The notes beneath the pieces were generated by a model. It did not search any database and had not been told where the DNA came from. It saw nothing but the letters and a program-made list of their open reading frames with translations. Shown here in pieces: positions 2,490-64,000 of a stretch of 64,000 bases of DNA (position 1 is its first letter; each line of letters opens with the position of its first letter). The stretch is from Tubiluchus corallicola. Its lineage: Eukaryota; Animalia; Priapulida. Made by a program: the position numbers and the translations under genes. The DNA lies in the NCBI GenBank assembly GCA_030141605.1, contig JAQGDQ010000286.1, forward strand, positions 234,626-298,625, read 5' to 3'.

Positions 2490-5192
2490 TTATTTTGCAA
2501 AACGATGTACATCCAGCATCGTAGCAGACCTTTCTTTTGCAATTACTTTACTTAAGTGATGATGCTTTGATGACTTTTCATCAGATTCTGGAAGACGAAA
2601 TAAAGTTTTAATTGCATCAAAACGTAGATTACTGCCTGCTCTTTCAGCTTCTGCAATATCAGAAACAAGGTCAACATTTTCAAAAGAGTTAATTTTCAAA
2701 TATTCCGGAGTTGACGTCGGAAGCATATTTTCATTGTAACGCACGACATCCATATTAAAAGTAGTACCTGTGTGAATATTTGACACCTGCGGCAAATGTT
2801 CCATCGCTTCCTGCCATTTCTCGAAGGTTTTCAAACCTTCACGATATTCTTCTAACTGTAAATCAATTGGTTTATTTGGAAAGTAGTAATCAGTCACTGA
2901 ATAAGGGAGCTTTCTTGCAGTGGGTTGTGTCCCAGGAGCAGGATCAAATATATGCAGAGGAGAATACTTTGGCGCATTTATCAACTCCTGTGGAACTGTA
3001 AACTCACTGTGCACTGTACGAGGTTCTGTTTCTTCCACACTATGTTTGCTGCTAGGTTTTGATATGGTTACACTTGACTCAACTGATTCGGCTAAATCAG
3101 TTGCTAATTCACCTTCAAGATGTTTTTTGCTCAAGCACTTATTAGCAAAGTAAAGGTACATTACTTCCACCCGTTCAATCCCAGGAAAATCAGCAAATTC
3201 TGGGAACAAACATTCGTGATTTTGGGGAAAGTTGAAATTAATATCGTGAAGAGAGATATCTGGTATGTTACTTGTGGCGACATCTGGCATAGGTAGCTTA
3301 TTGTAAATCCCAAGGTCACATTTGCCCACTCTTGGAGGTGCTGGGAACTGCGATAAGTCATACTGGCCAGGCATGTGGCCTGTCAAAAAATCTACTTGGG
3401 GAAGACTCTTTGTTTTGCTAATTTTCTCAAAACTAAGGGCTTTTTTACTTTCGACACCCGTAATGTCAGAGACATCTTCAGACGACATATCGCCCTCTAT
3501 ATTGACAACAGAACACTGTTCAAATTGGATTTTTGCTAAATAATCTTTGATCTTTCTTAATCTTTTCTCCATCCTACATCGATATATCACTTTCCATGTA
3601 GCAGCGATAAATCTTTCTAATGTTCTTTGTCGCTGGGCCCACAGATTAATCTTTCCTCTGTCAAAAGATGGCTGACGTATAACTGTATCATCAGCACTTC
3701 TACAGGTTCTTCCTGCTAATGAAACTGTAGCAACATCAGAGCCTAACACTGATTGCTCTGACATGAAGACCATTGCCTCTTCTGTCTGTGATAACTCAGC
3801 CTTAGTTTCAGAAGTAAGAGGCAAAAATCCATGTTTTACATCAATTTTTTCACTGTCCTCCTTATCGATTTTCTTGCACCTGTCCAAGAAAATTTTTTCT
3901 TTGTCCATTCTACTCAGTTTGCTGCTTGCATATTTTTTATTTACCTTTACTAAGACATCTTCACATCTTGAACTACTCTTGCTTTTGTGCTTCTTTAAAA
4001 ATAAAATATTCTTCTGTTGACCTGCTTGATGTTTCCGCTCAAAAACTTTGTCTTGAAAAACTTGTTTTTCTGGTAATCTTAGGTCACTAGTTTCATGTTC
4101 AATTATACTTGCAATATCTCTTTTTAGTGAGTCCATGCTTTCCTCTAAAACAGACTGCTGAAGTTCCATGAGTGCTAAGCCAGCGCTTTCAACAACATCT
4201 GACTCACTTCTGTCACAAGGCTGCAAAAGACTTTCATTTGATGTTGTCAGTAAAAGTCTACTACTTTTGCTAGCAGCAGTTCCATCCACGGCTTCTGTTG
4301 ATGTTTCTGTGGCATCGTTCACACTTTTTAGCGCAGCAGAACTATCACCTAAAACTTTCTCTGTTTCGGATATGAATGGCAGTTTTTCCGTTGAACCAGT
4401 TATAACACAGGTCAATGGAGTACTGTCAAAATGCAGTAAATGCAAATGAATTTCTGCACAAGCTGCTTCCAGATTTACTGGTTTAAATGTGATGAAAAAC
4501 CTTTTCTCAGACATTCCAGGAATTACACCATCACGAGGATGATAGGTAAATGCCGGATGATCTTGTACAATGGTCACCCAGAAACTACATTCTGCAGCCA
4601 TATCATTCTTTAGAGGAAGAGCAAGAGTTTTGCTTTCTCCACATTGTAAAGCAGGAAACGTTAAAGCTTCGGGAAAACTTGGCAGCAACTGTGCTTCCGT
4701 TGCATGGATTGGAATTAGTAAATTCTTATTATTCTGGCAATGTATCCTAATACAGTCATAGTAATAGCGTGTTTCTTGAGGAGTAAACACAATGTTAACA
4801 GTCATTTTCAAACCTGGCAAAATGGTTCCTTTTTTGGTATAAGAAATCGAGAAAAACTCTGTCTGCGGAGGAATTATGTGTATCTTTTGGCTTCTCACAG
4901 AGGTATTTATGATTTGCAAAGTTAACTTTTGAGAACTTCCTGACACAAACTTGGAAAAATGTAACACGGCCGGTTTAACAAATATGTCTTCATTCTTTTC
5001 TTGTGTGAATACTTTGGTTTCCAGTAAGTGGTTAGGGACACCTGCACATGATGCTGGTTCAACTTCTCCACACAAGAAAGTGGACAAGCTTCCTTGTAGG
5101 AGTTTGGGTGACAATGACAGATTTTCTACCGCAATTTGACCTTCATTTGGTATATTGCATACGTCAAGCGAGAAGCACTCAGAACTAGCCAT
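2490..5192 (-). CDS. CFAP221: Cilia- and flagella-associated protein 221 (PCDP1)-like, uninterrupted 900-aa CDS
   Basis: N-terminal ASH/Ig-like segment VPNHLLE...KPAVLHF...HIIPPQT..F...PGL...F.P.E.RYYYDCIRIHC...LLIPIHA recognised as CFAP221; IQ-like RQRTLERFIAATWKVIYRCRMEKRL segment; splice acceptor (tttttacag) ~40 nt upstream of the ATG. Confidence 0.85.
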   Translation of the reverse strand: MASSECFSLDVCNIPNEGQIAVENLSLSPKLLQGSLSTFLCGEVEPASCAGVPNHLLETKVFTQEKNEDIFVKPAVLHFSKFVSGSSQKLTLQIINTSVRSQKIHIIPPQTEFFSISYTKKGTILPGLKMTVNIVFTPQETRYYYDCIRIHCQNNKNLLIPIHATEAQLLPSFPEALTFPALQCGESKTLALPLKNDMAAECSFWVTIVQDHPAFTYHPRDGVIPGMSEKRFFITFKPVNLEAACAEIHLHLLHFDSTPLTCVITGSTEKLPFISETEKVLGDSSAALKSVNDATETSTEAVDGTAASKSSRLLLTTSNESLLQPCDRSESDVVESAGLALMELQQSVLEESMDSLKRDIASIIEHETSDLRLPEKQVFQDKVFERKHQAGQQKNILFLKKHKSKSSSRCEDVLVKVNKKYASSKLSRMDKEKIFLDRCKKIDKEDSEKIDVKHGFLPLTSETKAELSQTEEAMVFMSEQSVLGSDVATVSLAGRTCRSADDTVIRQPSFDRGKINLWAQRQRTLERFIAATWKVIYRCRMEKRLRKIKDYLAKIQFEQCSVVNIEGDMSSEDVSDITGVESKKALSFEKISKTKSLPQVDFLTGHMPGQYDLSQFPAPPRVGKCDLGIYNKLPMPDVATSNIPDISLHDINFNFPQNHECLFPEFADFPGIERVEVMYLYFANKCLSKKHLEGELATDLAESVESSVTISKPSSKHSVEETEPRTVHSEFTVPQELINAPKYSPLHIFDPAPGTQPTARKLPYSVTDYYFPNKPIDLQLEEYREGLKTFEKWQEAMEHLPQVSNIHTGTTFNMDVVRYNENMLPTSTPEYLKINSFENVDLVSDIAEAERAGSNLRFDAIKTLFRLPESDEKSSKHHHLSKVIAKERSATMLDVHRFAK

Positions 5193-6773
5193 TGGGTAGA
5201 AGTTTCACTTACAAAGCTCAAGTACAGTAATCTGTAAAAATAAATAATAAATACCTTTACACAAAACTCGTTTGATATGTCGATGTCCAACAATTAGCAA
5301 AGCAACCTTTAGTAATCTTAGGTAAAAATAAACTAGTACACATGAACAAAATTACATATTACAGAATAGAGGTAGTCTCATGGCAAAAAATCAAACAGAG
5401 AAAGAGCAGTTCAGAGTCTTGACAACAATGTCAAATACCTAAAACTGCTGAAAGATTGTCTCAGAAGCACAGGAAAATTTTCATATAAACCATTAATTGT
5501 TAAAAGTTATCAATCATGCTATATAAAAATGAGCTAACAAAGGTTATCCTACAGGTTAGGGCCAGATTATAATTATTTAAAAATTCCTAACCATTCACAG
5601 GCATTCACATTCACATTCCTAAACATAAGCATGCACAGATTGAAATGGCAGCCGTTTTTCGCCACTTGTCTGTTTTATAAATACAATGATACCTACACAT
5701 AAACAATCCACAGTTACAAACAATCGTCAATTTTTTAAATATTTTTGTAGACCCCTGAATTAAAATTTCACACATGATACACGCCTGCATGGTTAGGTTG
5801 CATTTTAAGTTATGTTCTGCACTTCTAACACAACACAAATTCCTTAAGTTTCCTACATTTTTTGAAATTGCGTAAAACCCTAAAAATGACTAAATATAAT
5901 CATTAACATATTGTCTGCCTCTATGAGCATTTTATTTATTTATTCATTTTATTTTATTTTATTTTTATTTTTCACTTCAGCACAACAGTACAAAACAATG
6001 TACAAAAAAAAATAAAATGACCAAAATAACAAAACAATTAACATCAAATCAGAAAAAATTACGTAAGTCGTACATATTGTGTAACAATACCATAGATATG
6101 GTTTATGTAGATCAAAGATCTTGGTGATTGCTTAGAAGTGTTCTGCATTCTAGACTGTCTTGCTGTTCTGATCTTCTTTGTTTAAGTTCCTTATTAGTTT
6201 AATAAATACTATTTTATTATGCACGCATTTGTCTGGTTGCTGATATAATTGTAGCGTGTAACATATTGTACTGCAGAACACTGAAGAAGCTGAGAGCTTG
6301 TAAATGCTTTCTGGAAATGTGAAAAAGAGAAGGAAAAAGGTGGTAGTAGTAATAAACGTTTGGGAAAAATAGTGTGAAGAATGGCGATCGATGGGGTGGG
6401 GTGCATTGCAAAAAAACCATATTCTTGAATGATAAGTACAACATATAAAGACATAGACAAAGACAGACATAAACTACAATTGATGTTTGCAAATTTGACA
6501 ATTAACAAAGATATACGTTATGTACATATAATATATATTAACAAGATAAACAAACTATAAGAATAGACAAAGATAGACATAGCATTTAGTTTACACTGGT
6601 TTCAGTTTTAAATAGCAACTGCTCTTAGACTTTGAATACCAAATCTAACGGAATCATACCAAAATAATATCGTGTTATCCGTTTTTATTATAAGTTAGTA
6701 CGCGCGTTGCACAAAGAAATTGTACGTGTCATCGAATTTGAACCTCTTTCGATAAAATCAATGTTGTTCAGCC

Positions 6774-8144: not shown

Positions 8145-9312
8145 TAAGATTCTGCATAAAACATTATAGCAGTATCTTCTTGTTTTACCACCGGATTTTA
8201 TTTATATATTTATTTATTTATTAAGATTCTGCTTACAGCTGAATCTCTTTGTTTTACCACTGATTTTTATTTATTAATTATTTATAGTACGCCTTTTTGT
8301 TTCATCAAAAACTCGCACATGCACAGGGCAAGGTTCACAAAACTTACAGGGCACACTCTCCTGGTAAGAGGATTTATGTTCGCACATGACCCGTCACCCT
8401 TGGATCAAAGGTCACAGAGCGGGCAGAACATTTTGTTTTTTTTCGTTAGGCTGGATTTCCTCCTACAGTTTTTGAGTTAGGGCCACAATGTGGCTAGGTG
8501 ATGTCGAGTTGTTATGCACGGCTGAATATGAGCGAATTGGGTGTGTGAAAATTTTTCGGTAAGAGGCAAGGGTGTCGGGGACACCAGTACTTCCAATTTG
8601 GGGTAACACTGTCGTGTAATATATCAAATGAAAGGTCTTGTTGAGACGAATCGAATGGTATAACTTTCGCTGATTTTGGCTAGCCCATGACCCCACTAGG
8701 GGACAGAAACCGAAATCACGGGTTGGGACACTAATGCTTCCGTGTCAAGTAGCAGTAGCTTGTACTACGTCAAATGAAAGGTATTGATGAGCAGAATGGA
8801 ATGGTATGAAGTTACGCCCAGATTTGTTGACTCTTGACCTGCTAGGAGGCAAAAAACAAAATTGAGGGTCATGTAGACAAATGCTTTTCAGTGTCCAGCA
8901 GCATCAGGTTGTCAGTATATCAAATGAAAAGTATCAATGAGACTAATCGAGTGGTATAAGTCATGCCTGCATTTGTTGACCCTTGACCTCGAGGTCAGAG
9001 GTAAAGTGGAAGTCCCAGTTTTAGTGTCTTACAATACATCAAATGAAAGGTCTCGATGAGACGAATTGAATGAGACAACCTAAGCTTAGACTGGTCAACC
9101 ACAGGCCCCACTAGAGGATGATAAGTGAAATTGTCTGGCAGTAATACAAAATCTTCCTACGTTGAGCAACAGTATGTTGTAGCATATCAAATGAAAACTC
9201 TTGATGAGAAGAATTGAATGGTGTATCTTGACCCGTATTTGGTCAGCCTTGAGCCACTGGTCACTGATCAAAAAGTTACAAATTCTGATTTCATTGAAAC
9301 TGTTAATCGAGT
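8145..9312 (+). mobile_element. Non-autonomous Helentron/HINE-like element with internal ~140-bp tandem repeats
   Basis: tcaaatgaaaggt(c/a)t..atgag...aat.gaatggtat recurs at ~8624, 8770, 8920, 9040, 9187; starts ttaagattctgc...tttattt; a reverse-complement relative lies at 55066-56165. Confidence 0.55.
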
Positions 9313-11087: not shown

Positions 11088-21973
<10,886 letters not shown>

Positions 21974-32100: not shown

Positions 32101-35100
32101 GAAATTTCAGTCTTAAAATTAACCACAATGAATTTAATTAATTAGTTAAGCTCTTTCTATAGTGAGTGATCTAACATTGGAAATGCTGAATTCAGTTGGT
32201 CATCTATAGGGATGAACTTGTAAGGCCTTGACCACTGTGAGATACAGTGGCTGAGTAGTCTACGGTGTCTGCCTTGTAAGCAAAAGTGCCCTGGTTCAAA
32301 TCCGGGCTCTATCCTAACTTTTCGCATTTCCTGTCTTTCAAGTTTAGTATCAAAATTTAATGAATTGTGGATTTGTACCATCATTAATAATAATCTTGAC
32401 ATTAATGTTACTATAAGTAATTATACTTGTTCTTTAATGCGTGGGCGTGTTGCTTGCCCACACATTTAATTGACATGCGTACGCAAGAGATTGATAAAGT
32501 TACTCAAATAGTGAAGCAAATAATGGGTGCCATGTTGTTGGACAAAACGGTATTATTTACTATTAGGCAAACAACAGATGCCATTTTGTTAGGCAAAAAC
32601 AGCATTCTGTTTAAGGCAACAGCGGCATTCTGAAGACAAAGTATTGATGCTATGCAGGCTGGCAATCTTTTTCTCTTGTACAAGCAGCATTTAAATCTGT
32701 GCACATGCCATAAAATATTGCGTAGGCTAATTAAAATGTACGTGTAATTTCAATGCACTGTTCTTTGCACGATTTAGCAGCAGTGTTCTACTTTTTGTCA
32801 TTCGGGGAGTTCTGTATTTAAGTAAGTCTTTTAATTGTAAGAATGGTAATTACATTCTAGTAACCGGTTATGCCTGTTTATTATTAACAAGCCGATGCTG
32901 GTACCGAAGCCCATTAGCGAATTTTTTGATATTTTTGATATAGAGTTTTAACTTTCCTAACAATGACTTACCTTCTGCATTGAAGTAGCATTTTTAGCAA
33001 CTCTGAAAGACTGCAATGTGTAGTCATTGTTTAATATAGGTAGAAATGTTTTCAGTCACTGCTGATGAAACAGGTGAAGAGAGTAATCGAAAGCTAGATG
33101 AAATTGTTGCAACACAAAAAGAGCTTTTCCAAGATCTGGGATTAAACTTTGTGTGAGTTTTTATACGTCATATGAGGCATTTATAATGTATGGAAAACTG
33201 TGAACAACATTAAATTTTTTTGTACAAATCTCTTAATTATTAAATTAAATTAAATTGCTAACGATTAAATTAAGGCCTTCACAAATGTACTAGAGGAATT
33301 TTTCTACTAAATTAAGTATCGATTAAATGAAATATTCCTGCAGTACTTTTAAGTTTTGCCACCACAATTCATTCAAGATAAACAAACCATCAAACTCCTT
33401 TGTAGTTAATTTAATTGTAGAATCAAATGGAACAGCAGTTATTTGATATGTTCCTTTTTCAAATTTAAATTTTATTTGCTGCAGTAACTGCAGTTTTTAT
33501 ATTTACATGTACTTGAATATTGATTTAGTTTCTATGAATTTATGTTTAAAATTCTCATTGAATTTTGTCATTTCTCAAATAATAAAGAAATTTCTGTTTC
33601 TTTGTTTGCAAAATTATCATTCTTCTTCACCTAAAATTCATTGTGCAAGATGCATCTTCTGCCTCCAACACTCTTAATTTAAATCAGTATTAATTAGTTT
33701 CATTCATTCTGTTTCTACTCATTGATTTGTACCTCCCAGGCTGTTGGACATGCCTTCTCATGAACTCGGAGCGGCGGCCTACAGAAAATATGATATAGAA
33801 GCCTGGATGCCAGGACGGAACATGTATGGAGAGGTCGGTGTGCTAAAATTAATTTCAGCTGTAATAATTATGACACAGAACTAAACATGAAATGGTAATT
33901 TAGGTGATAATAGAGATATTTTTTTTCAAACTAACAGAAGAAGCGGATTCAAATTTATAAAAAAACACTAAGTACTAAAAAAACTCCCATCTCAGCCCCT
34001 CCGTTTTATTTTATTTTGTTCAGGAACTCCCGCTCCGTTAGGTAGCTAAGTCACATATATTTTTTATACAATTGTTATAAAAAATTAAAAATTATAATTA
34101 TAATATATGATTTACTAATAATTTACTATATATTTACTTGAACATTTTATTTTCTTACTTATTATTTATCCTAAAAATCCATTAGCATTCGTGTAATGGA
34201 CATACTGTATGAAAAGTTCAGTTTTTCCTAGCAAACAAAGGCAATTTGGTGTCAACCTATCAGGATCGTCCCAGGAATTAGAACCCAACCAAATGGCAAC
34301 TCTAACTTTACTGTAGTTTGGACCTCTCCGTTTGTACTTGTTTGGACATTACCAGACATTTGAATAGGGCTATCTTTGCAATTTACCTGTCACCTTTTCC
34401 ACAAGCTTAAGATATCAGAGAATGAGCTTGATTCACCATCTAAACTGGAGACTTAAAACTTTCTGTAATCTGTTTACTGAAGCACTTTAGCCACGTATGA
34501 TTTTAGGCAAATGAGAGAGACAGAAAAGGGTATATTTATTCAACCAGTTACAGGGATGTGATCATCTGTCTGTATTCTTTGTCAGTCTATTTCCTGTGTT
34601 AAACTTTCACTGAACATATTGATTTTATGCAAAGTGCTAAGTTCTTTATTTTCTTCTGTTACTGAAATGTTTAATTTATAATCATACTAAACCTTCACTA
34701 TAATATAAGCTTTTGCAAGCTAAAATCCTACTTTCATTACGAATATTCAGTTTATTTTATTATAAACTTACTGTAGAACTTGTTTCTTTTGATTCTTTAT
34801 CACTTCATTGGTATTGGTATTAAATTTGTGCGAGATGATTGAGTCCCGAGGTCACCAAAGATCACCAAACAAACATTGTAACCAGGGATGCTTTCTGTAC
34901 CTCATACGTCGTTCTCGCTCACGTGCGCAAAAGATACGAAACCTGGCAATCTTAACGGCAACGCACTTGTTCGAAATTCGCCAGAAAAAAGGCAAGTTAT
35001 TTAATTTATAAGTTGCTTTTCTTTGATAATAACTACTAATTTTTGTGTAATCATAGTAGTGTGTTAATAAAACTTCAATGTCTGTTAGGGGTTATTTTTA

Positions 35101-51329: not shown

Positions 51330-54043
51330 TAATTCTTTATTTGTCATAAAACCGGTTCCCTCATTATAATAGAATTGAGTTAGCCTCAGCGTAATGTTAA
51401 AATAACAACACTATTCAAGACAAATGCGTCCAGTGCATACTAAAAAAAACTAAAGTGCAAACTATATACAATATAATGAACATATTTACAAATACCATAT
51501 TAAAATATTTTTACAAACAATTATAGGAAAGTACATTAAATTTTACATTACATAGTGCACACTATTTATACATTTAACATTAAGAAACACGAAACTAACA
51601 TAACACGTATTACATTACATAATTTTTTTTAAAAATTTCATTTTTAATCATTATATGGAGTCAGGGGCGGGGGTATATGAAAGTGGAGTCTGTGTAATTA
51701 GTATCAGATGCACAAGGTGGAAGTTGAAACCTGTTATATTGATATTCTTTTAATTTCTTTTTAAAGTGGTGGAGAGATTCTATTTGTTTTATTTCACTGG
51801 GTAGTAAGTTCCATAAATGTATGGCCTGTTTTGATATAGAGTTATTTCCAAATTTATTGTTTACCGTAATTTGCTTTAAATTGTATGTTCTAGTGTTCAA
51901 TGTGGTATCAGCAATAAATGCTAAGGGATTGTTTATAAATGGAATGCTCAGTTTATTTATATATTTATAAAGAAATATCAGTGTTTTGTAATCTCGATAG
52001 GCTTCTAATATTGGTATTTTTGTGGACGTTCTTAAGCTTGTTGCAGAAGCAGCATGTTGTTTAGCAGTTTTGTTAGAGTAGCCATGAATTAATCTAAGTG
52101 CGTAGTTTTGCATTGTATTTGGTTTCATATTTGACGTTTTGAAGTAAAGTGCAACCATATAGATAATGTGGTAATATTAGACTTTTGTAGATGAGAATTT
52201 TTGTTTTCTTGGTTAGATGGCCTCTGGTTTGGCGTAAGAATGTCGTGCTTAATGCCATCTTGTTGTGTATTTGATGAAACTGTTCATCCCAAGTGAGTTT
52301 ATTGTCGACAGTAATGCCTAAAAATTTTACAGTTTTTGCTTGTTCTATGGAACAGTCACCTACTTTTAGTGTTGCATTAGAAGTAATGTCATTTGATTTG
52401 GGTAATATTACCATAAATTCTGTCTTATCATCATTCATTTTTAAACCAAAATAGTTATATGCTGCATTTATATTTGTTATGTCTTTTTCTAGATTATTTT
52501 TTGATGTTAGAAAGTCTGCGTGTGCTGTATAGAGTGTTGTATCATCGGCATATTGTGTTAAGTCTGAATTATGTAAAACTAAATGAATTTTATTAACGTA
52601 TAAACAAAAGAGTAATGGACCTAATATCGTACCTTGTGGGATGCCTCTCTGCGGTGTGTCCCATGTTGAAAAAGTGTGTTTGTTCAGTTTGACTCTTTGT
52701 TTTCTATTGTGTAGGTAATTATTAATTAGTTTGAGAGAAGTATAATCGAATCCTAGTTGGCGTAAGTTGTCTAGTAGTAAATTGTGATCGAGGCTGTCAA
52801 AAGCTTTACTTAGATCTAAAAATGCTGCTGTTATATATTTATTTTTATTTAAGTTGTAACGCCACTTTTCAGTGGCATCAATTATCGCGTCTATTGTAGA
52901 ATGTAGTTTTCTAAAACCAAATTGATGATTTGACAGTAACTTATTATTTTCAATGTAATGGTTTATTTGGTTGTAGATAACTCTTTCAAATACTTTGGCT
53001 AGTACGTGCACTACTGAGATTGGTCTGTAGTTTTTAGCATCATCTTTAGCATCTTTCTTGTGTATTGGAGTTATGTTTGCTTGTTTACACACTGCTGGAA
53101 ATTCTGAGCGCATTAAGACTTGGTTTGTGATATATGTTAGATGAGGAGTAATGATGCTGGCACAGTCTTTTAAGATCTTTATTGGCATGTCTCAGGGTCC
53201 ACTTCCTTTATTTATATTTAAACTGTTTAATATTCTAAAGATGTCGTATTCTGTGACGCTAGTAAATGAGAAAGTGGATTGTATTACTGATTGGTTTTTG
53301 TATATATTGTGTATATTTGCATTATGTTGGTGTGGCAAGTTGTCAAATTTTCCGAGATTGATAAATGTGGAATTTAATTTGTTAGCAATGTCAACTGGAT
53401 CAGATATTATACTGTCATTTTCTCGTAAACTATTTATTTGTAATTGATCGTTTCTGTATCTGTTAAGTACGTCATTAATTAAACGCCATTTTTGCTTAGG
53501 TGTAGTTGCGTCATTGCATTTATTAATATAATATTTATTTTTGAGTTTCCTGTTTTAGCTATTAAATTTATTTCGTGCCTTTTTGTAATTATTGTAATTG
53601 CTTTTACCTTTTAAATGTAAATATGTTCTATATAATTCATTTTTATTGTGTCTTAGTTTTGCCAGTTCTGTATCCGCCCAAGAGCAGGCAGATTTTGCAT
53701 TAAATTGCTGCTGATGTATTTTAATTTTTCTATACGGTGCATAGATATCCAGGCAGTATTCCATATTATTTATTAGTGTGTTTATTTGTATGTCAATGTC
53801 AGTCATTGTGTAAACATTACTCCAATCCAATTTGGTTAAAGTATCTTGAAATATACCTTTATTATATGTAGAATAATCTCTGACTGTTTTCCAGACTGTG
53901 CCTGTATTGTTTTTGGTTGGTTCTGTTTTGTCTACTATTATTATAAAATAATGATCAGAATAATCACACGAGAAGTTTTCTTGTACTTGGAAATTGTCTT
54001 TAGCGTTTGAGATAAAGTGGTCTATGGTAGTAGATGATGTTTT
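51330..54043 (-). mobile_element. 5'-truncated CR1/L2-clade LINE (end of APE endonuclease plus reverse transcriptase), frameshifted
   Basis: TTIDHFISN...DYSDHYFI (APE end), NYRPISV, QFGFR, FLDLSKAFD, GIPQGTILGPLLF, YADDT, KFLGITVD; split over ORFs 53555-54040, 52094-53188 and 51661-52158; 3' end has AATAAA followed by (TA)n. Confidence 0.92.
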
Positions 54044-55065: not shown

Positions 55066-56165
55066 GCATTTCACAAAGAAACTTCAACATTTATATTCAA
55101 CCCATTACCTACGGGTCAAAGTTCAACGAATCCCGCCATAACTTATACCATTCAATTTGTCTCATTGAGACCTTTTTTTTGATGTGCAACAAGCAACTTT
55201 TGATAGACCCTGGAAGGCATTTGTCTCCTCAACCCCTATTTTGCCCCTAAAGGGGTCACGGGTAAACGATTCACACTGTAACCTATACAATTCGATTCGC
55301 CTCATCAAAACCTTTCATTTGATATGCTTTCAAGACCATATACCAATGGTCTTGATATCGTACATCGTACTATTCATAAACACAAAGGCTTTCTGTTCCC
55401 GACCCCGATTTTTCGATTTTTGCCCCCTACTGGGGTCAGAGATCAACCAGTCTCGGCATAACTTATACCATTCGGTTTGATTCACCGGACGGCATTTGTA
55501 TTCTCAACCTCCATTTTGCCACCTAGCGGAGTCGCGGGTTAACTTTTCTCATTGTAACCTATGCCATTCGATCGCCACATCGGGACCTTTAATTCGATGT
55601 GCTACAAGGTACCATTGCTCAACACTCGGTACACTTCTGTTCCCGACCCCGAATTCTCGGTTTTCGCCCCCTAGCAGAAAAAATATCCCATGTTTTGTGA
55701 TGTGCAAGGCTACGACACCACCTAGCAACACACCAAATATTGAGGCCCTAGCTCGAAAACTGCGGGAGCAGATGGCAATTGCGGGACCCCAAATATTACA
55801 TTTTGGCCCCTCCCCCGGGCGTTTAAAACTTGTCAGCTTTTTAAAACCCCAGGTGCACATCTACGGCACAGTGCCCAAATACTTGTGAAAAAAATTGTAA
55901 AAAAACGAAATCCTAGGAGGTGCGACCTAAAGGAAAAACGCCCACTGCCCTTCCCCCTTGATCAACGGTCAGAGATCGCCATACTATTGTATGTCCCCCG
56001 CCCAGGACTACCAACCCTGTGAGTTTGATGACCCTAGCTTGCAAGGTTTACGAGTTATTAAGCGTTAAATTTGTGGAGAATAAATAACCGTATTTTGCTA
56101 TGACAGAATCTTAATAAATAGCTCGACGAAAACAGTAAAATTGTGCTATAGCAAAATCTTAACAA
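55066..56165 (-). mobile_element. HINE-like element related to 8145-9312, opposite orientation
   Basis: tataccattc.att.gtctcat..agacctttcatttga units and terminal cagaatcttaa are reverse complements of the 8-9 kb element. Confidence 0.55.
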
Positions 56166-58371: not shown

Positions 58372-58558
58372 CTGCTTATCCAGCAGGGCTGCTTATTCAG
58401 CAAGGCTGCTTGTTCAGCAGAGGTTGCTTATTCAGCAAGGCTACTTGTTCAGCAGTGGCTGCTTATTCAGCAGTGCTGCTTATTCAGCAAGGCTGCTTAT
58501 CAAGCAGGGCTGCTTATTCAGCAAGGCTGCTTATCCAGCAGGGCTGCTTATTCAGCAG
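58372..58558. repeat. ~17-bp minisatellite (gctgcttattcagcaag)n
   Basis: About 10 degenerate tandem copies; possibly inside a solo LTR. Confidence 0.9.
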
Positions 58559-58844
58559 TCCAGTCGTTTGCTCCTGAAACTCCTATTTTTATAGGAGGCT
58601 TATCTGCTCTCGTCACGTGACTTCTGTAGAGTTTGTGTACCTGGCGTCCTGGCAACAAATTGCCAGCTATTGCCCAATGTATATTTTGTTGATAAGTGAT
58701 TATTCTAATATTAATTTTACATAATAAACGTATTCTAGAATTATTTAAACACTTTACAGGTTTCATTTTAGTGTTATCGAAGATATAATGTAATTATTTA
58801 ACATATTTAATTTAATTTTGGGGTATGTTGGTTTGTTGTCTCGA

Positions 58845-58890
58845 TCCGCATGTAAACAAACATGGCGGCGTCCTGACGGCGGCTGTTCAT
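58845..58890 (+). promoter_or_regulatory. CpG-rich core promoter with YY1-like motif
   Basis: tgtaaacaaacatggcggcg (forkhead site plus AACATGGCGGC) in a CpG patch, followed by donor-like sites. Confidence 0.45.
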
Positions 58891-59111
58891 GCAAGTGCAT
58901 CTATTTATTAGAATCGCCGCTGATCCCATTCTTAGGGCGTTTATTAGCTAATTTACCGTTTTCAAAGGTGAAATAGCTGTTCTTCTTCAGAACAATTAAG
59001 GCAAGGGGAGGTGAATAAGTGTAAAACACTATTGCGCGCCTTTATCTTAACCACCATAATAATAATGCGGCTCCTTGAGTTACTTTAACGTGCGAGTTGA
59101 TGATTTTGTAG

Positions 59112-59226
59112 GAAGATTGCGTAAAAATTCGTTGTCCGAAGACACTATTACTATTAGACTTGATAAACGGAGAATAGAAAGATAAGATGAAGTTAACGAC
59201 AATAAAACAAGACCAACTTGAGCCAG
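59112..59226 (+). CDS. Putative early exon of a plus-strand gene (5' UTR plus MKLTTIKQDQLEP from ATG 59187)
   Basis: Acceptor tgattttgtag| and donor CCAG|gtatgg; lies downstream of the promoter-like patch; no homology recognised. Confidence 0.35.
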
Positions 59227-59787
59227 GTATGGGTTATCGTTGATCTAGAATCTAGATTTGCTAACAATTGACAGACTGTATACAACTTGTTTACAAAGTC
59301 AAAGATTTATTCAAAACCATCTATCCATGTAAGTAATCAGTTTCTTTCATTGTTGAATTGATTCATAGAAAGCTTTAATAAGTGGACTATCTCTGGTAAC
59401 GTCAAAGCATGATCCAACTTGCAGTTGAAGTCTAACTATGAAAGGAGAAAGGAACTGATGTTAAAGGAGCAATACTCGCTAAAAGTTAGTAAGTCTATTG
59501 TTCTACATAATATACAATGTACTAACTTAGGTGTAACATTCTAATCATGGCACGACGTGGTGGAACGATAAATGGTCACTACCATGATGTGAATATGAGT
59601 GATAAGATATAGTAGATGTAGGTAAACGTAAACATATTTAGATAAAGTATACATTGCGTTAAATTAGGTGCAACAATCTAATCATGGCACGACATGGTGG
59701 AACGATAAATGGTCACTACCACGATGTAAATATGAGTCATATGATATACCAAGTAATTTAAGTAAAACTAAACATATTAGACCTTAC

Positions 59788-59853
59788 TTGCCTAACCTTT
59801 GTAAGTAAAGAGCTTGACCAAGGTCCCCATTTCTCTTCCCAGCCTTAATCAGC
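59788..59853 (-). other. 66-nt exon-like segment A, repeated in every unit (LIKAGKRNGDLGQALYLQRLG)
   Basis: Acceptor cttttactag| and donor AA|gtaagg; only the phase-2 frame is open. Confidence 0.55.
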
Positions 59854-59912
59854 CTAGTAAAAGTTTAAATTATTTTCATTCAGTTTCATTTCTGTGAACT
59901 CGTGTGGGCTGT

Positions 59913-60086
59913 GTGCAGCTCTTCGCATGATTTGGCATGAGGTTTTGGCCCCTAAGCTACCAACTGCCCAACTAATGTGCATGCATTTTGCCCAACAACA
60001 TCATCATCATTATTATCAACAGTGTTCATGTCTCATGCCAAATCATCCCAGAACTCACCACGAGGAGGTGGCTGCACTTGAGTTCC
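59913..60086 (-). ncRNA. HDV-like self-cleaving ribozyme, copy 1
   Basis: Minus strand: P1 GGAACUC/GAGUUCU (G1.U wobble), J1/2 AA, P2 GUGCAGC/GCUGCAC, P3 ACC/GGU, L3 UCCUCGU, P1.1 CC/GG, P4 AUGAUUUGGCAUGAG/CUCAUGCCAAAUCAU, J4/2 GCGAA with catalytic C at 59925. Confidence 0.88.
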
Positions 60087-60189
60087 ATCTAACTAACTTA
60101 ATTAAAAATGATAATAAAATATTACCTAAGAGATCGATTAAATAATTACCGTAATAAATTTGTCAAAAAACTAATCCAGCATTGCCTAC

Positions 60190-60249
60190 TTGCAGTTGAA
60201 GTCTAACTATGAAAGGAGAAAGGAACTGATGTTAAAGGAGCAATACTCG
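60190..60249 (-). other. 60-nt exon-like segment B, repeated in every unit (NEYCSFNISSFLLS*)
   Basis: Branch-point-like tactaac plus ttttag| acceptor and AA|gtaggc donor; the last copy (from 59478) lacks the donor and runs on to AATAAA at 59311-59306. Confidence 0.5.
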
Positions 60250-60683
60250 CTAAAAGTTAGTAAGTCTATTGTTCTACATAATATACAATGTACTAACTTA
60301 GGTGTAACATTCTAATCATGGCACGACATGGTGGAACGATAAATGGTCACTACCATGATGTGAATATGAGTGATAAGATATAGTAGATGTAGGTAAACGT
60401 AAACATATTTAGATAAAGTATACATTGCGTTAAATTAGGTGCAACAATCTAATCATGGCACGACATGGTGGAACGATAAATGGTCACTACCACGATGTAA
60501 ATATGAGTCATATGATATACCAAGTAATTTAAGTAAAACTAAACATATTAGACCTTACTTGCCTATTCTTTGTAAGTAAAGAGCTTGACCAAGGTCCCCA
60601 TTTCTCTTCCCAGCCTTAATCAGCCTAGTAAAAGTTTAAATTATTTTCATTCAGTTTCATTTCTGTGAACTCGTGTGGGCTGT

Positions 60684-60890
60684 GTGCAGCTCTTCGCATG
60701 ATTTGGCATGAGGTTTTGGCCCCTAAGCTACCAACTGCCTAACTATGATAAATAATTATCGCAAAATCTTACATGTGCATGCATTATGCCCAACAATATC
60801 ATCATCATCATCATCATTATCAACAGTGTTCATGTTTCATGCCAAATCATCCCAGAACTCACCACGAGGAGGTGGCTGCACTTGAGTTCC
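60684..60890 (-). ncRNA. HDV-like self-cleaving ribozyme, copy 2
   Basis: Catalytic core identical to copy 1; longer P4 loop. Confidence 0.88.
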
Positions 60891-61486
60891 ATCTAACTAA
60901 CTTAATTAAAAATGATAATAAAATATTACCTAAGAGGTCGATTAAATAATTACCGTAATAAATTTGTCAAAAAACTAATCCAGCATTGCCTACTTGCAGT
61001 TGAAGTCTAATTACGAAAGGAGAAAGGAACTGATGTTAAAAGAGCAATACTCGCTAAAAGTTAGTAAGTCTATTGTTCTACATAATATACAATGTACTAA
61101 CTTAGGTGTAACATTCTAATCATGGCACGACGTGGTGGAACGATAAATGGTCACTACCATGATGTGAATATGAGTGATAAGATATAGTAGATGTAGGTAA
61201 ACGTAAACATATTTAGATAAAGTATACATTGCGTTAAATTAGGTGCAACAATCTAATCATGGCACGACATGGTGGAACGATAAATGGTCACTACCACGAT
61301 GTAAATATGAGTCATATGATATACCAAGTAATTTAAGTAAAACTAAACATATTAGACCTTACTTGCCTATTCTTATAAGTAAAGAGCTTGACCAAGGTCC
61401 CCATTTCTCTTCCCAGCCTTAATCAGCCTAGTAAAAGTTTAAATTATTTTCATTCAGTTTCATTTCTGTGAACTCGTGTGGGCTGT

Positions 61487-61684
61487 GTGCAGCTCTTCGC
61501 ATGATTTGGCATGAGGTTTTGGCCCCTAAGCTACCAACTGCCTAACTATGATAAATAATTATCGCAAAATCTTACATGTGCATGCATTATGCCCAACAAT
61601 ATCATCATCATTATCAACAGTGTTCATGTTTCATGCCAAATCATCCCAGAACTCACCACGAGGAGGTGGCTGCACTTGAGTTCC
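61487..61684 (-). ncRNA. HDV-like self-cleaving ribozyme, copy 3
   Basis: Catalytic core identical to copy 1. Confidence 0.88.
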
Positions 61685-62279
61685 ATCTAACTAACTTAAT
61701 TAAAAATGATAATAAAAAATTACCTAAGAGATCGATTAAATAATTACCGTAATAAATTTGTCAAAAAACTAATCCAGCATTGCCTACTTGCAGTTGAAGT
61801 CTAATTACGAAAGGAGAAAGGAACTGATGTTAAAAGAGCAATACTCGCTAAAAGTTAGTAAGTCTATTGTTCTACATAATATACAATGTACTAACTTAGG
61901 TGTAACATTCTAATCATGGCACGACGTGGTGGAACGATAAATGGTCACTACCATGATGTGAATATGAGTGATAAGATATAGTAGATGTAGGTAAACGTAA
62001 ACATATTTAGATAAAGTATACATTGCGTTAAATTGGGTGCAACAATCTAATCATGGCACGACATGGTGGAACGATAAATGGTCACTACCACGATGTAAAT
62101 ATGAGTCATATGATATAGAAAGTAATTTAAGTAAAACTAAACTTATTAGACCTTACTTGCCTATTCTTTGTAAGTAAGGAGCTTGACCAAAGTCCCCGTT
62201 TCTCCTCCCAGCCTTAATCAGCCTAGTAAAAGTTTAAATTATTTTCATTCAGTTTCGTTTCTGTGAACTCGTGTGGGCT

Positions 62280-62480
62280 GTGCAGCTCTTCGCATGATTT
62301 GGCATGAGGTTTTGGCCCCTAAGCTACCAACTGCCTAACTATGATAAATAATTATTCCAAAATTTTACATGTGCATGCATTATGCCCAACAATATCATCA
62401 TCATCATTATCAACAGTGTTCATGTTTCATGCCAAATCATCCCAGAACTCACCACGAGGAGGTGGCTGCACTTGAGTTCC
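62280..62480 (-). ncRNA. HDV-like self-cleaving ribozyme, copy 4
   Basis: Catalytic core identical to copy 1. Confidence 0.88.
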
Positions 62481-63077
62481 ATCTAACTAACTTAATTAAA
62501 AATGATAATAAAAAATTACCTAAGAGATCGATTAAATAATTACCGTAATAAATTTGTCAAAAAACTAATCCAGCATTGCCTACTTGCAGTTGAAGTCTAA
62601 CTATGAAAGGAGAAAGGAACTGATGTTAAAAGAGCAATACTCACTAAAAGTTAGTAAGTCTATTGTTCTACATAATATACAATGTACTAACTTAGGTGTA
62701 ACATTCTAATCATGGCACGACGTGGTGGAACGATAAATGGTCACTACCATGATGTGAATATGAGTGATAAGATATAGTAGATGTAGGTAAACGTAAACAT
62801 ATTTAGATAAAGTATACATTGCGTTAAATTAGGTGCAACAACCTAATCATGGCACGACATGGTGGAATGATAAATGGTCACTACCACGATGTAAATATGA
62901 GTCATATGATATACCAAGTAATTTAAGTAAAACTAAACATATTAGACCTTACTTGCCTATTCTTTGTAAGTAAAGAGCTTGACCAAGGTCCCCATTTCTC
63001 TTCCCAGCCTTAATCAGCCTAGTAAAAGTTTAAATTATTTTCATTCAGTTTCATTTCTGCGAACTCGTATGGGCTGT

Positions 63078-63278
63078 GTGCAGCTCTTCGCATGATTTGG
63101 CATGAGGTTTTGGCCCCTAAGCTACCAACTGCCTAACTATGATAAATAATTATTGCAAAATTTTACATTTACATGCATTCTGCGCTACAATATCATCATC
63201 ATCATTATCAATAGTGTTCATGTTTCATGCCAAATCATCCCAGAACTCACCACAAGGAGGTGGCTGCACTTGAGTTCC
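63078..63278 (-). ncRNA. HDV-like self-cleaving ribozyme, copy 5 (L3 variant UCCUUGU)
   Basis: Same core with one L3 substitution at 63254. Confidence 0.82.
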
Positions 63279-63875
63279 ATCTAACTAACTTAATTAAAAA
63301 TGATAATAAAAAATTACCTAAGAGATCGATTAAATAATTACCGTAATAAATTTGTCAAAAAACTAATCCAGCATTGCCTACTTGCAGTTGAAGTCTAACT
63401 ATGAAAGGAGAAAGGAACTGATGTTAAAGGAGCAATACTCGCTAAAAGTTAGTAAGTCTATTGTTCTACATAATATACAATGTACTAACTTAGGTGTAAC
63501 ATTCTAATCATGGCACGACGTGGTGGAACGATAAATGGTCACTACCATGATGTGAATATGAGTGATAAGATATAGTAGATGTAGGTAAACGTAAACATAT
63601 TTAGATAAAGTATACATTGCGTTAAATTAGGTGCAACAATCTAATCATGGCACGACATGGTGGAACGATAAATGGTCACTACCACGATGTAAATATGAGT
63701 CATATGATATACCAAGTAATTTAAGTAAAACTAAACATATTAGACCTTACTTGCCTATCCTTTGTAAGTAAAGAGCTTGACCAAGGTCCCCATTTCTCAT
63801 CCCAGCCTTAATCAGCCTAGTAAAAGTTTAAATTATTTTCATTCAGTTTCATTTCTGTGAACTCGTGTGGGCTGT

Positions 63876-64000
63876 GTGCAGCTCTTCGCATGATTTGGCA
63901 TGAGGTTTTGGCCCCTAAGCTACCAACTGCCTAACTATGATAAATAATTATCGCAAAATCTTACATGTGCATGCATTATGCCCAACAATATCATCATCAT
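63876..64000 (-). ncRNA. HDV-like ribozyme copy 6, 3' half only (cut by the window edge)
   Basis: P4 3' strand, J4/2 GCGAA and P2 3' strand present. Confidence 0.75.

Follow-up and report, generated by a model that had tools for sequence, protein, structure and literature searches.

Self-cleaving ribozymes of the hepatitis delta virus (HDV) type are known in genomes from the 5′ ends of retrotransposons that lack long terminal repeats (non-LTR), from introns and as dispersed motifs, and the retrozymes and ribozyme satellites in the literature searched carry hammerheads. The closest described systems are the animal non-LTR retrozymes of coral, mussel and axolotl (PMC7229834, PMC7761336, bioRxiv 10.64898/2026.07.22.740005), which are abundant head-to-tail non-coding repeats with a type I hammerhead and with kin among Penelope pLTRs; hammerhead retrozymes are circularised from 5′-OH and cyclic-phosphate ends (PMC7761336). 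Long arrays in which an embedded ribozyme would cut transcripts to monomers are also described as newt satellite transcripts, Schistosoma SM-alpha and W-elements (PMC6765202, PMC8490949). Ribozymes of the HDV class at the 5′ ends of R2, RTE, Baggins and L1Tc (PMC6765202, PMC7936874) cut the element out of a longer transcript, and L1Tc can itself form tandem repeats. Further literature drawn on was PMC4870747, PMC5680766 and PMC11721086.

Here we analyse a stretch of 64,000 nt from the priapulid Tubiluchus corallicola (GenBank assembly GCA_030141605.1, contig JAQGDQ010000286.1, positions 234,626 to 298,625; hereafter the window), which ends in a tandem array of non-coding units of ca. 796 bp, each with one HDV-like ribozyme motif. 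Like the animal retrozymes (PMC7229834), the unit has one ribozyme on one strand, no open reading frame (ORF) and a GC content below 50 %. It differs from them, and from the newt and Schistosoma satellites, which use hammerheads, in its delta-type ribozyme (PMC8490949 does not contain the term HDV), and the nearest kin found for this ribozyme are in hATm-type DNA transposons, not in Penelope pLTRs. Unlike the ribozymes of R2, RTE, Baggins and L1Tc, those of the window have no following ORF, stand in tandem with shared upstream sequence and have their nearest kin 3′ of a transposase. By ribozyme class, size and fold, the unit thus falls outside the animal non-LTR retrozymes as defined, although it may work like one. 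In the literature searched, hATm elements with a ribozyme were not found, nor were non-coding tandem repeats of the HDV type, although earlier surveys of HDV-like ribozymes may mention such cases.

HDV-like ribozyme motifs in the window

The original prediction, made from the sequence alone, was of a minus-strand tandem array of HDV-like ribozymes with five full copies and a partial one. A descriptor search bore this out, matching exactly five copies in the window, with all elements present, as against 13 matches in 1659 dinucleotide shuffles (0.008 per shuffled window). The complete copies have their first nucleotide, G1, at 63278, 62480, 61684, 60890 and 60086, and the copies are as follows.

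63876–64000, minus strand: ribozyme copy 0, 3′ half only, with part of the P4 loop, the P4 3′ strand, J4/2 and the P2 3′ strand; C at 63888
63078–63278, minus strand: HDV-like ribozyme copy 1, with UCCUUGU as L3 and cleavage predicted 5′ of 63278; 45 bits
62280–62480, minus strand: HDV-like ribozyme copy 2, predicted cut 5′ of 62480; 49.3 bits
61487–61684, minus strand: HDV-like ribozyme copy 3, P4 arms 61631–61644 and 61501–61514, catalytic C 61499
60684–60890, minus strand: HDV-like ribozyme copy 4, predicted cut 5′ of 60890
59913–60086, minus strand: HDV-like ribozyme copy 5, core intact, with 27 nt deleted from the P4 loop, catalytic C 59925

The nested double pseudoknot is complete in all five full copies; the helix sizes used for comparison are those of the HDV/CPEB3 ribozymes, and the topology is that given in PMC10879173. 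Each copy has a P1 of 7 bp with a G1-U wobble, a P2 of 8 bp with a bulged A and a P3 of 3 bp (ACC/GGU), together with AA at J1/2, an L3 of 7 nt and GG for P1.1. A perfect stem of 14 bp forms P4 and encloses a loop of about 92–125 nt. J4/2 (GCGAA), with the catalytic C and the conserved A, occurs in six of six copies (catalytic C at 63888, 63090, 62292, 61499, 60696 and 59925), and a C-to-U change is reported to inactivate an HDV-type ribozyme (PMC10879173). The L3 sequence UCCUCGU had been read in each unit, but the copy starting at 63278 has UCCUUGU. The pairing probability of P1 is 0.89–0.96 in the nascent 5′ half, and that of P4 is 0.84–1.0. These copies are HDV-like ribozyme motifs, for which cleavage is predicted.

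An Rfam search of the window gave no match for the ribozyme copies at the gathering score. At E values up to 10, all five copies match RF02682 (HDV-F-prausnitzii) with 17.5–20 bits, below its cut-off of 44, and the alignments stop inside the long P4, short of the true J4/2. The copies share the P3/L3 core with RF02682 and with theta ribozymes (PMC10879173), and the RF02682 consensus resembles them in having G and one A between J4/2 and the P2 3′ strand; these ribozymes have, however, a prokaryotic or phage setting and a short P4 or none, and the window copies score below the gathering threshold.

Substitutions among the window copies were found at 1 of 82 core positions and at 12 of 116 P4-loop positions (Fisher p 0.016), and both the 27-nt deletion and length changes of an ATG repeat are located in the P4 loop.

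The repeat unit, its reality and its abundance

The array and the parts of its unit that are referred to below are the following.

59417–64000, minus strand: tandem array of ca. 796-bp non-coding units, 5.7 units in the window, continuing past the window end
59340–59417, no strand assigned: array junction, where the last unit stops at 59417 and adjoins a short dispersed repeat
61239–61323, minus strand: duplicated block, first copy, 85 nt, 92 % identical to the second, ending in CACCTA
61102–61186, minus strand: duplicated block, second copy, 85 nt; the block is present twice in every unit

Units are 794–804 bp long (G1-to-G1 spacing of 798, 796, 794 and 804) and 95–99 % identical in pairwise comparisons (differences of 1–5 %), with a GC content of 35 % (34.5 % for the window). 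There is one ribozyme per unit, always on the minus strand, and each full unit starts with the ribozyme motif. The unit is devoid of ORFs, the longest stop-to-stop frame being of 94 aa (frames listed for 60000–62000). Neither strand of the unit contains the hammerhead core CUGANGA, and the Rfam search at E up to 10 revealed no hammerhead family, no second ribozyme and no other known RNA in it. The duplicated block gave 12 matches in the window and none in 100 shuffles; a hairpin fold is obtained for the segment with its second copy (z -2.95) and not for that with the first (z 0.71). Words resembling splice signals (GTAAG, TACTAAC), an Sm site and A/B boxes also occur in the unit and were given no weight, and a sigma-70 promoter scan was set aside as inapplicable to a eukaryote.

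Four of the six listed sequencing runs contain the stretch; they come from two studies, none of them is listed as RNA, and X1 may be the source sample. Contigs of these runs were mapped onto positions 58600–60300. Relative to the low-depth flank, the summed contig depth over the unit is about 2,300x in X1 and about 420x in X4, from another study, although it is inflated by overlapping contigs and is no copy number; from this inflated depth, we read the unit as present in hundreds to a few thousand copies. Pieces of the ribozyme and of the duplicated block also occur in run X5, from another study; that run has no cover over 59797–59967 and the flank, and missing cover is no evidence. Run X6, whose RNA nature is a guess, covers a short flank repeat only. 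Beside the array, 59340–59392 is covered by contigs with other flanks, as a dispersed motif of ca. 53 nt found in all four runs examined, and 58600–59055 is a moderately repeated element of about 10–25 times the flank depth in X1.

A depth peak of X4 just downstream of G1 was considered as a transcript start, but was rejected as evidence of RNA because the X4/X1 ratio tracks regional GC (Spearman 0.80, 0.62 and 0.30 for GC over ±150, ±75 and 0 nt, respectively).

One X1 contig departs from the unit at 60038 and goes on with 255 letters unlike it; this contig carries the same ribozyme 5′ half with a different downstream sequence. Read by eye, the 30 letters displayed close a shorter P4 of at least 7 bp with a 23-nt loop. 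This suggests that the same sample contains a relative with a short P4, which may be the parent element of the unit.

The original prediction allowed for an assembly artefact. This concern is removed, since the units carry distinct variants, one X1 contig (59107–59446) extends 30 bases past the array junction and contigs of two studies cover the array far more deeply than the flank. An alternative source of repeated monomers is the 5′ end of a long interspersed nuclear element (LINE). R2, RTE and L1Tc carry HDV-like ribozymes at their 5′ ends, and the strand of the array also has a broken LINE with an RVT_1 domain (51661–54031); however, more than 5 kb and other repeats separate the start of this relic from the array, and no reverse transcriptase ORF is situated directly downstream, the nearest RVT_1 frame (52097–53191) being more than 6 kb beyond the last ribozyme. 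A LINE 5′ end and an artefact are both largely excluded already, and the chance that either explains the array is minute.

The abundance of the unit also bears on a host-kept device, which would end or process read-through transcription, or would make a structural non-coding RNA with ribozyme-set ends from a heterochromatic block. An RNA upstream of an HDV-like ribozyme has its 3′ end set by it, as is the case for phage tRNAs with theta ribozymes (PMC10879173), and such a device would agree with the presence of ribozyme and duplicated-block pieces in X5. Nevertheless, one or two ribozymes would be enough for termination, the high abundance is left unexplained and no host gene was found running through the array within the window; this explanation is very improbable.

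Relatives of the ribozyme in hATm-type transposons

A 20-base core pattern copied from the window, which fixes the P3/L3 core and makes it uninformative for covariation, was found in 16 metagenome loci, 3 prokaryote-genome loci and no viral locus. Ten of the metagenome loci have a ribozyme-like fold, none in tandem; six (L001, L003, L006, L008, L014 and L016) are not ribozymes. None of the three prokaryote matches is a full ribozyme. In the viral contigs, three patterns gave no matches and a shorter core gave 17, none of them a full ribozyme under the filter, and transposase relatives were likewise not found there. Seven of the 16 metagenome loci are hATm-type, with the ribozyme on the transposase strand:

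L004, 896–971, transposase strand: HDV-like ribozyme in hATm-type 3′ tail
L005, 2989–3072, transposase strand: HDV-like ribozyme in hATm-type 3′ tail
L007, 682–763, transposase strand: HDV-like ribozyme in hATm-type 3′ tail
L009, 2957–3032, transposase strand: HDV-like ribozyme in hATm-type 3′ tail
L010, 197–272, transposase strand: HDV-like ribozyme in hATm-type 3′ tail
L011, 1589–1672, transposase strand: HDV-like ribozyme in hATm-type 3′ tail
L012, 11–94, transposase strand: HDV-like ribozyme in hATm-type 3′ tail

L004 and L005 carry mismatches and fail the strict ribozyme filter, and L012 was left out of alignments as it has the same ribozyme as L011.

A related ORF lies upstream on the same strand in four of the seven loci (L004, L005, where it is broken, L010 and L012), ending 39 (L010), 54 (L004) or 96 nt (L012) before G1. 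At E 1e-20 or better, relatives of its product number at least 929, and those that are named come from insects. The product contains conserved D, D and E residues and a CxxH motif. It showed no Pfam match, including the PF05699 domain named in PMC6004678, and no PDB sequence match. However, the structure model of a relative with 62 % identity (pLDDT 87) has as its best PDB match the Hermes hAT transposase (E 2.8e-5, TM 0.28–0.39). The conserved termini of hATm elements are 5′-TAGGGTG and CACCCTA-3′ (PMC6004678), and CACCCTA or CGCCCTA is situated 335–418 nt after the ribozyme in four of the five loci with 600 nt or more downstream: three ends are exact, L009 reads CGCCCTA and L005 has none, L012 being too short. 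In addition, L010 begins with TAGGGTG and stops inside an inverted copy of that end; none of the seven loci contains both ends in full. The word ribozyme is absent from the main text of PMC6004678, and no ribozyme words occur in the 8 of its 14 supplement files that were searched.

The ribozyme core of the unit is 90–95 % identical over 40–48 nt to the ribozymes of the hATm-type loci. P1 reads GG(A/G/C)ACUC in these seven, and the P1 5′ strand of the window is matched exactly in five of them and in none of the three other ribozyme-like loci. In an alignment of six hATm-type ribozymes with one window copy, 96 % of 174 cells pair, compared to 28–41 % in slid controls, and 6 of 25 pairs change on both sides, four of them in P4, a number reached by 3 of 500 shuffles. 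Covariation among the relatives affects P1, P2 and P4 and supports the cut sites originally predicted 5′ of 60086, 60890, 61684, 62480 and 63278. A covariance model built from the six hATm-type ribozymes scores the five window copies at 45–49 bits, and nothing else in the window above 13.4, although there is some circularity in this score, as the search pattern had fixed 20 bases.

Thus, the nearest relatives found are, as judged from these comparisons, 3′-untranslated-region ribozymes of hATm-type DNA transposons, and it is new that the closest kin found for the ribozyme of the unit appear there and not at retrotransposon 5′ ends. The putative hATm-type ribozyme constitutes a second finding beside the array. 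The ribozyme of the unit was likely captured from the 3′ untranslated tail of one such transposon. The P4 of the window shares no sequence with that of the relatives and yet has the same start and end register and a perfect 14 bp, and this rebuilding in register suggests selection on the fold after capture. A G-rich leader precedes the ribozyme in all seven hATm-type loci (5–12 G in the 15 nt upstream of G1), whereas the window unit has 3 G, and the likeness of the unit to these relatives starts at G1. Both the start at G1 and the G-poor leader are weak hints that the captured piece was a 3′ cleavage product.

Outside the ribozyme core, hATm hallmarks are missing: the unit contains neither TAGGGTG nor CACCCTA, and no transposase or remnant was found in the window by tblastn, a profile of 99 transposases giving a best E of 0.083, outside the unit. 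There is no convincing similarity between the unit and the hATm-type loci outside the ribozyme, as just 1 of 14 comparisons beats shuffles and rests on an AT-rich 27-mer reached by 4–5 of 500 shuffles. The CACCTA of the duplicated block ends 247 and 384 nt after the ribozyme and is one C short of the hATm end, of which it may be a worn version; a 6-mer is weak evidence. A CGCCCTA at 58933–58939 (minus strand) was rejected as an element end, since it lies inside another repeat spanned by contigs, and low-depth sequence (59056–59283) separates it from the array.

These data bear on whether the array is internal to a non-autonomous hATm element, with termini outside the array and cut-and-paste movement. 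The kinship of the ribozyme would agree with this, as would the CACCTA positions when compared to the 335–418 nt of four relatives. In contrast, the lack of the exact termini in the unit, with the nearest CGCCCTA in another repeat, and the lack of convincing likeness beyond the ribozyme make this explanation improbable.

The three other ribozyme-like loci (L002:517–573, L013:730–787 and L015:2958–3029) lack hATm marks; their HDV-like ribozymes are minimal or have a short P4, and share the core but differ in the P1 pairs. In L013, a tRNA-like T-arm follows the ribozyme, as in theta ribozymes, although ARAGORN called no tRNA.

Possible mode of spread of the repeat

In our assessment, it is evenly balanced whether the unit works like a non-LTR retrozyme using a delta-type ribozyme. 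By analogy with retrozymes, minus-strand transcripts reading through two units would cut themselves into monomers of ca. 800 nt with the 5′-OH and cyclic-phosphate ends of established HDV chemistry, a host ligase would join these into circles, and the circles would occasionally be reverse-transcribed into new arrays by a reverse transcriptase supplied in trans; DNA-level exchange would later have mixed the units, whatever seeded the array. The motif, its spacing, the hATm-type kinship, the high abundance of the unit and the mosaic variants are observed, and transcription, circularisation by the host ligase and copying in trans are proposed from the analogy only. In favour of a role of cleavage in the repeat family are the in-register P4 and the quiet core relative to the P4 loop, and, as weak hints, the G1 start without a G-rich leader and an X5 contig with 1 substitution in 56 along the 5′ half of the ribozyme, compared to 35 in 370 for five listed pieces elsewhere in the unit (p 0.07).

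The array may instead be a DNA satellite with a passenger ribozyme: an 800-bp piece with an hATm-derived ribozyme would have been amplified by unequal exchange or by rolling-circle DNA replication, its ribozyme being intact because the family is young and homogenised, and cleavage of stray transcripts would have no part in its spread. Since the nearest relatives lie in hATm-type transposons, this is a serious rival, which we consider to have a substantial chance of being correct, if short of even. The observations that weigh against a retrozyme-like unit begin with several that also favour this satellite explanation. A four-gamete test of the six window units found all four gametes in 7 of 21 pairs of informative sites, so the units are recombinant mosaics, by exchange of sequence between units or by recurrent mutation, and the array is not a fresh one-step product but one with active DNA-level turnover. 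Partial contigs are few relative to depth: of the 1790 X1 contigs mapped, just 145 match partially, a number that includes flank repeats and adapters, and the fraction that continues into unlike sequence rounds to 0, which suggests few long arrays, likely with most of the copies, and not many dispersed insertions. The contig joints, in turn, go back 251 bases (X5) and 270 bases (X1) over the duplicated block. The last unit ends at 59417, unit position 693 of 794, so that the visible array end is 101 nt from the next cut site. For the 794-nt monomer, folding is no better than in its shuffles (z 0.24, 11 of 20 as good), in contrast to the self-paired circles of retrozymes (PMC7761336). Moreover, conservation of the core does not significantly exceed that of the unit elsewhere outside P4 (changes at 1 of 82 and 23 of 596 positions, p 0.34) or that of all non-core positions (p 0.10).

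Other observations that weigh against a retrozyme-like unit are that roughly half of the changes in the P4 loop occur in one unit only, that units of 794–804 bp exceed the 150–450 bp of animal retrozymes, that neither a promoter nor a partner reverse transcriptase was identified for the array, and that the collections searched are poor in eukaryotic genomes, so closer kin of the ribozyme may exist, e.g. in LINEs. Also, in a nested fold of the full-length ribozyme the probability of P1 is just 0.03, although such programs cannot hold P1 and P2 together.

The satellite explanation has its own difficulties, as P4 was replaced and lengthened and is still perfect and in register, the window contains no coding remnant although the ORF ends only 39–96 nt before G1 in the three measurable loci, and the G-rich leader of the relatives is missing from the unit. 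A retrozyme- or satellite-like system had been put forward in the original prediction, and the retrozyme-like unit is still the best reading, although the mosaic units and a monomer fold no better than shuffles speak against it; the original prediction missed the hATm-type kinship.

A more far-reaching version of the retrozyme-like reading is that the self-cleaved 3′ product of an hATm transcript became an RNA-circle retroelement, the first delta-type retrozyme and a route from class II to class I elements, and, in addition, that an HDV-like ribozyme terminates the transposase mRNA in hATm transposons generally. We put this forward tentatively and regard it as rather doubtful. If the retrozyme-like reading is true, one ribozyme class can stand in for another in such elements too, as this abundant tandem repeat with its delta ribozyme would show, and the repeat would test whether monomer cleavage alone, without a Penelope pedigree, can found such a family. 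For the transposons, a conserved ribozyme just behind the transposase stop codon would, if active, cut the mRNA before any poly(A) site and leave it with a ribozyme-made 3′ end that lacks poly(A), thereby offering a simple candidate for how transposase expression limits itself. The relation of the unit to published hATm transposons (PMC6004678) would be confined to the ribozyme core shared with hATm-type loci, since the unit has neither termini nor transposase.

Other features of the window

By its content (an ORF like CFAP221, microsatellites and a LINE relic), the window likely derives from an animal. Upstream of the array in window coordinates, the broken LINE at 51661–54031 (minus strand; RVT_1 domain, E 3e-37) has in-frame stops and is flanked by trinucleotide microsatellites on both sides. 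A 17-bp tandem array of 10.9 copies (58372–58558) lies between a TATA-like word at ca. 58590 and a splice-donor-like word at ca. 58335, as read on the minus strand. A related, internally repeated element is found at 55108–55673 and at 8621–9225, in opposite orientation and with 70–89 % identity.

On the plus strand, a tRNA-like sequence at 32241–32314 (Rfam, 43 bits), whose anticodon loop reads UGU, may be a tRNA pseudogene or the head of a short interspersed nuclear element, and an exon-like frame at 20466–20927 has a weak Amidase match (E 2e-5, below the Pfam cut-off). Finally, a single open frame of 904 aa similar to CFAP221 occupies positions 2490–5204 of the minus strand. The CFAP221 gene has many exons in vertebrates, and the single frame may be a retrogene or a sign of an intron-poor genome.

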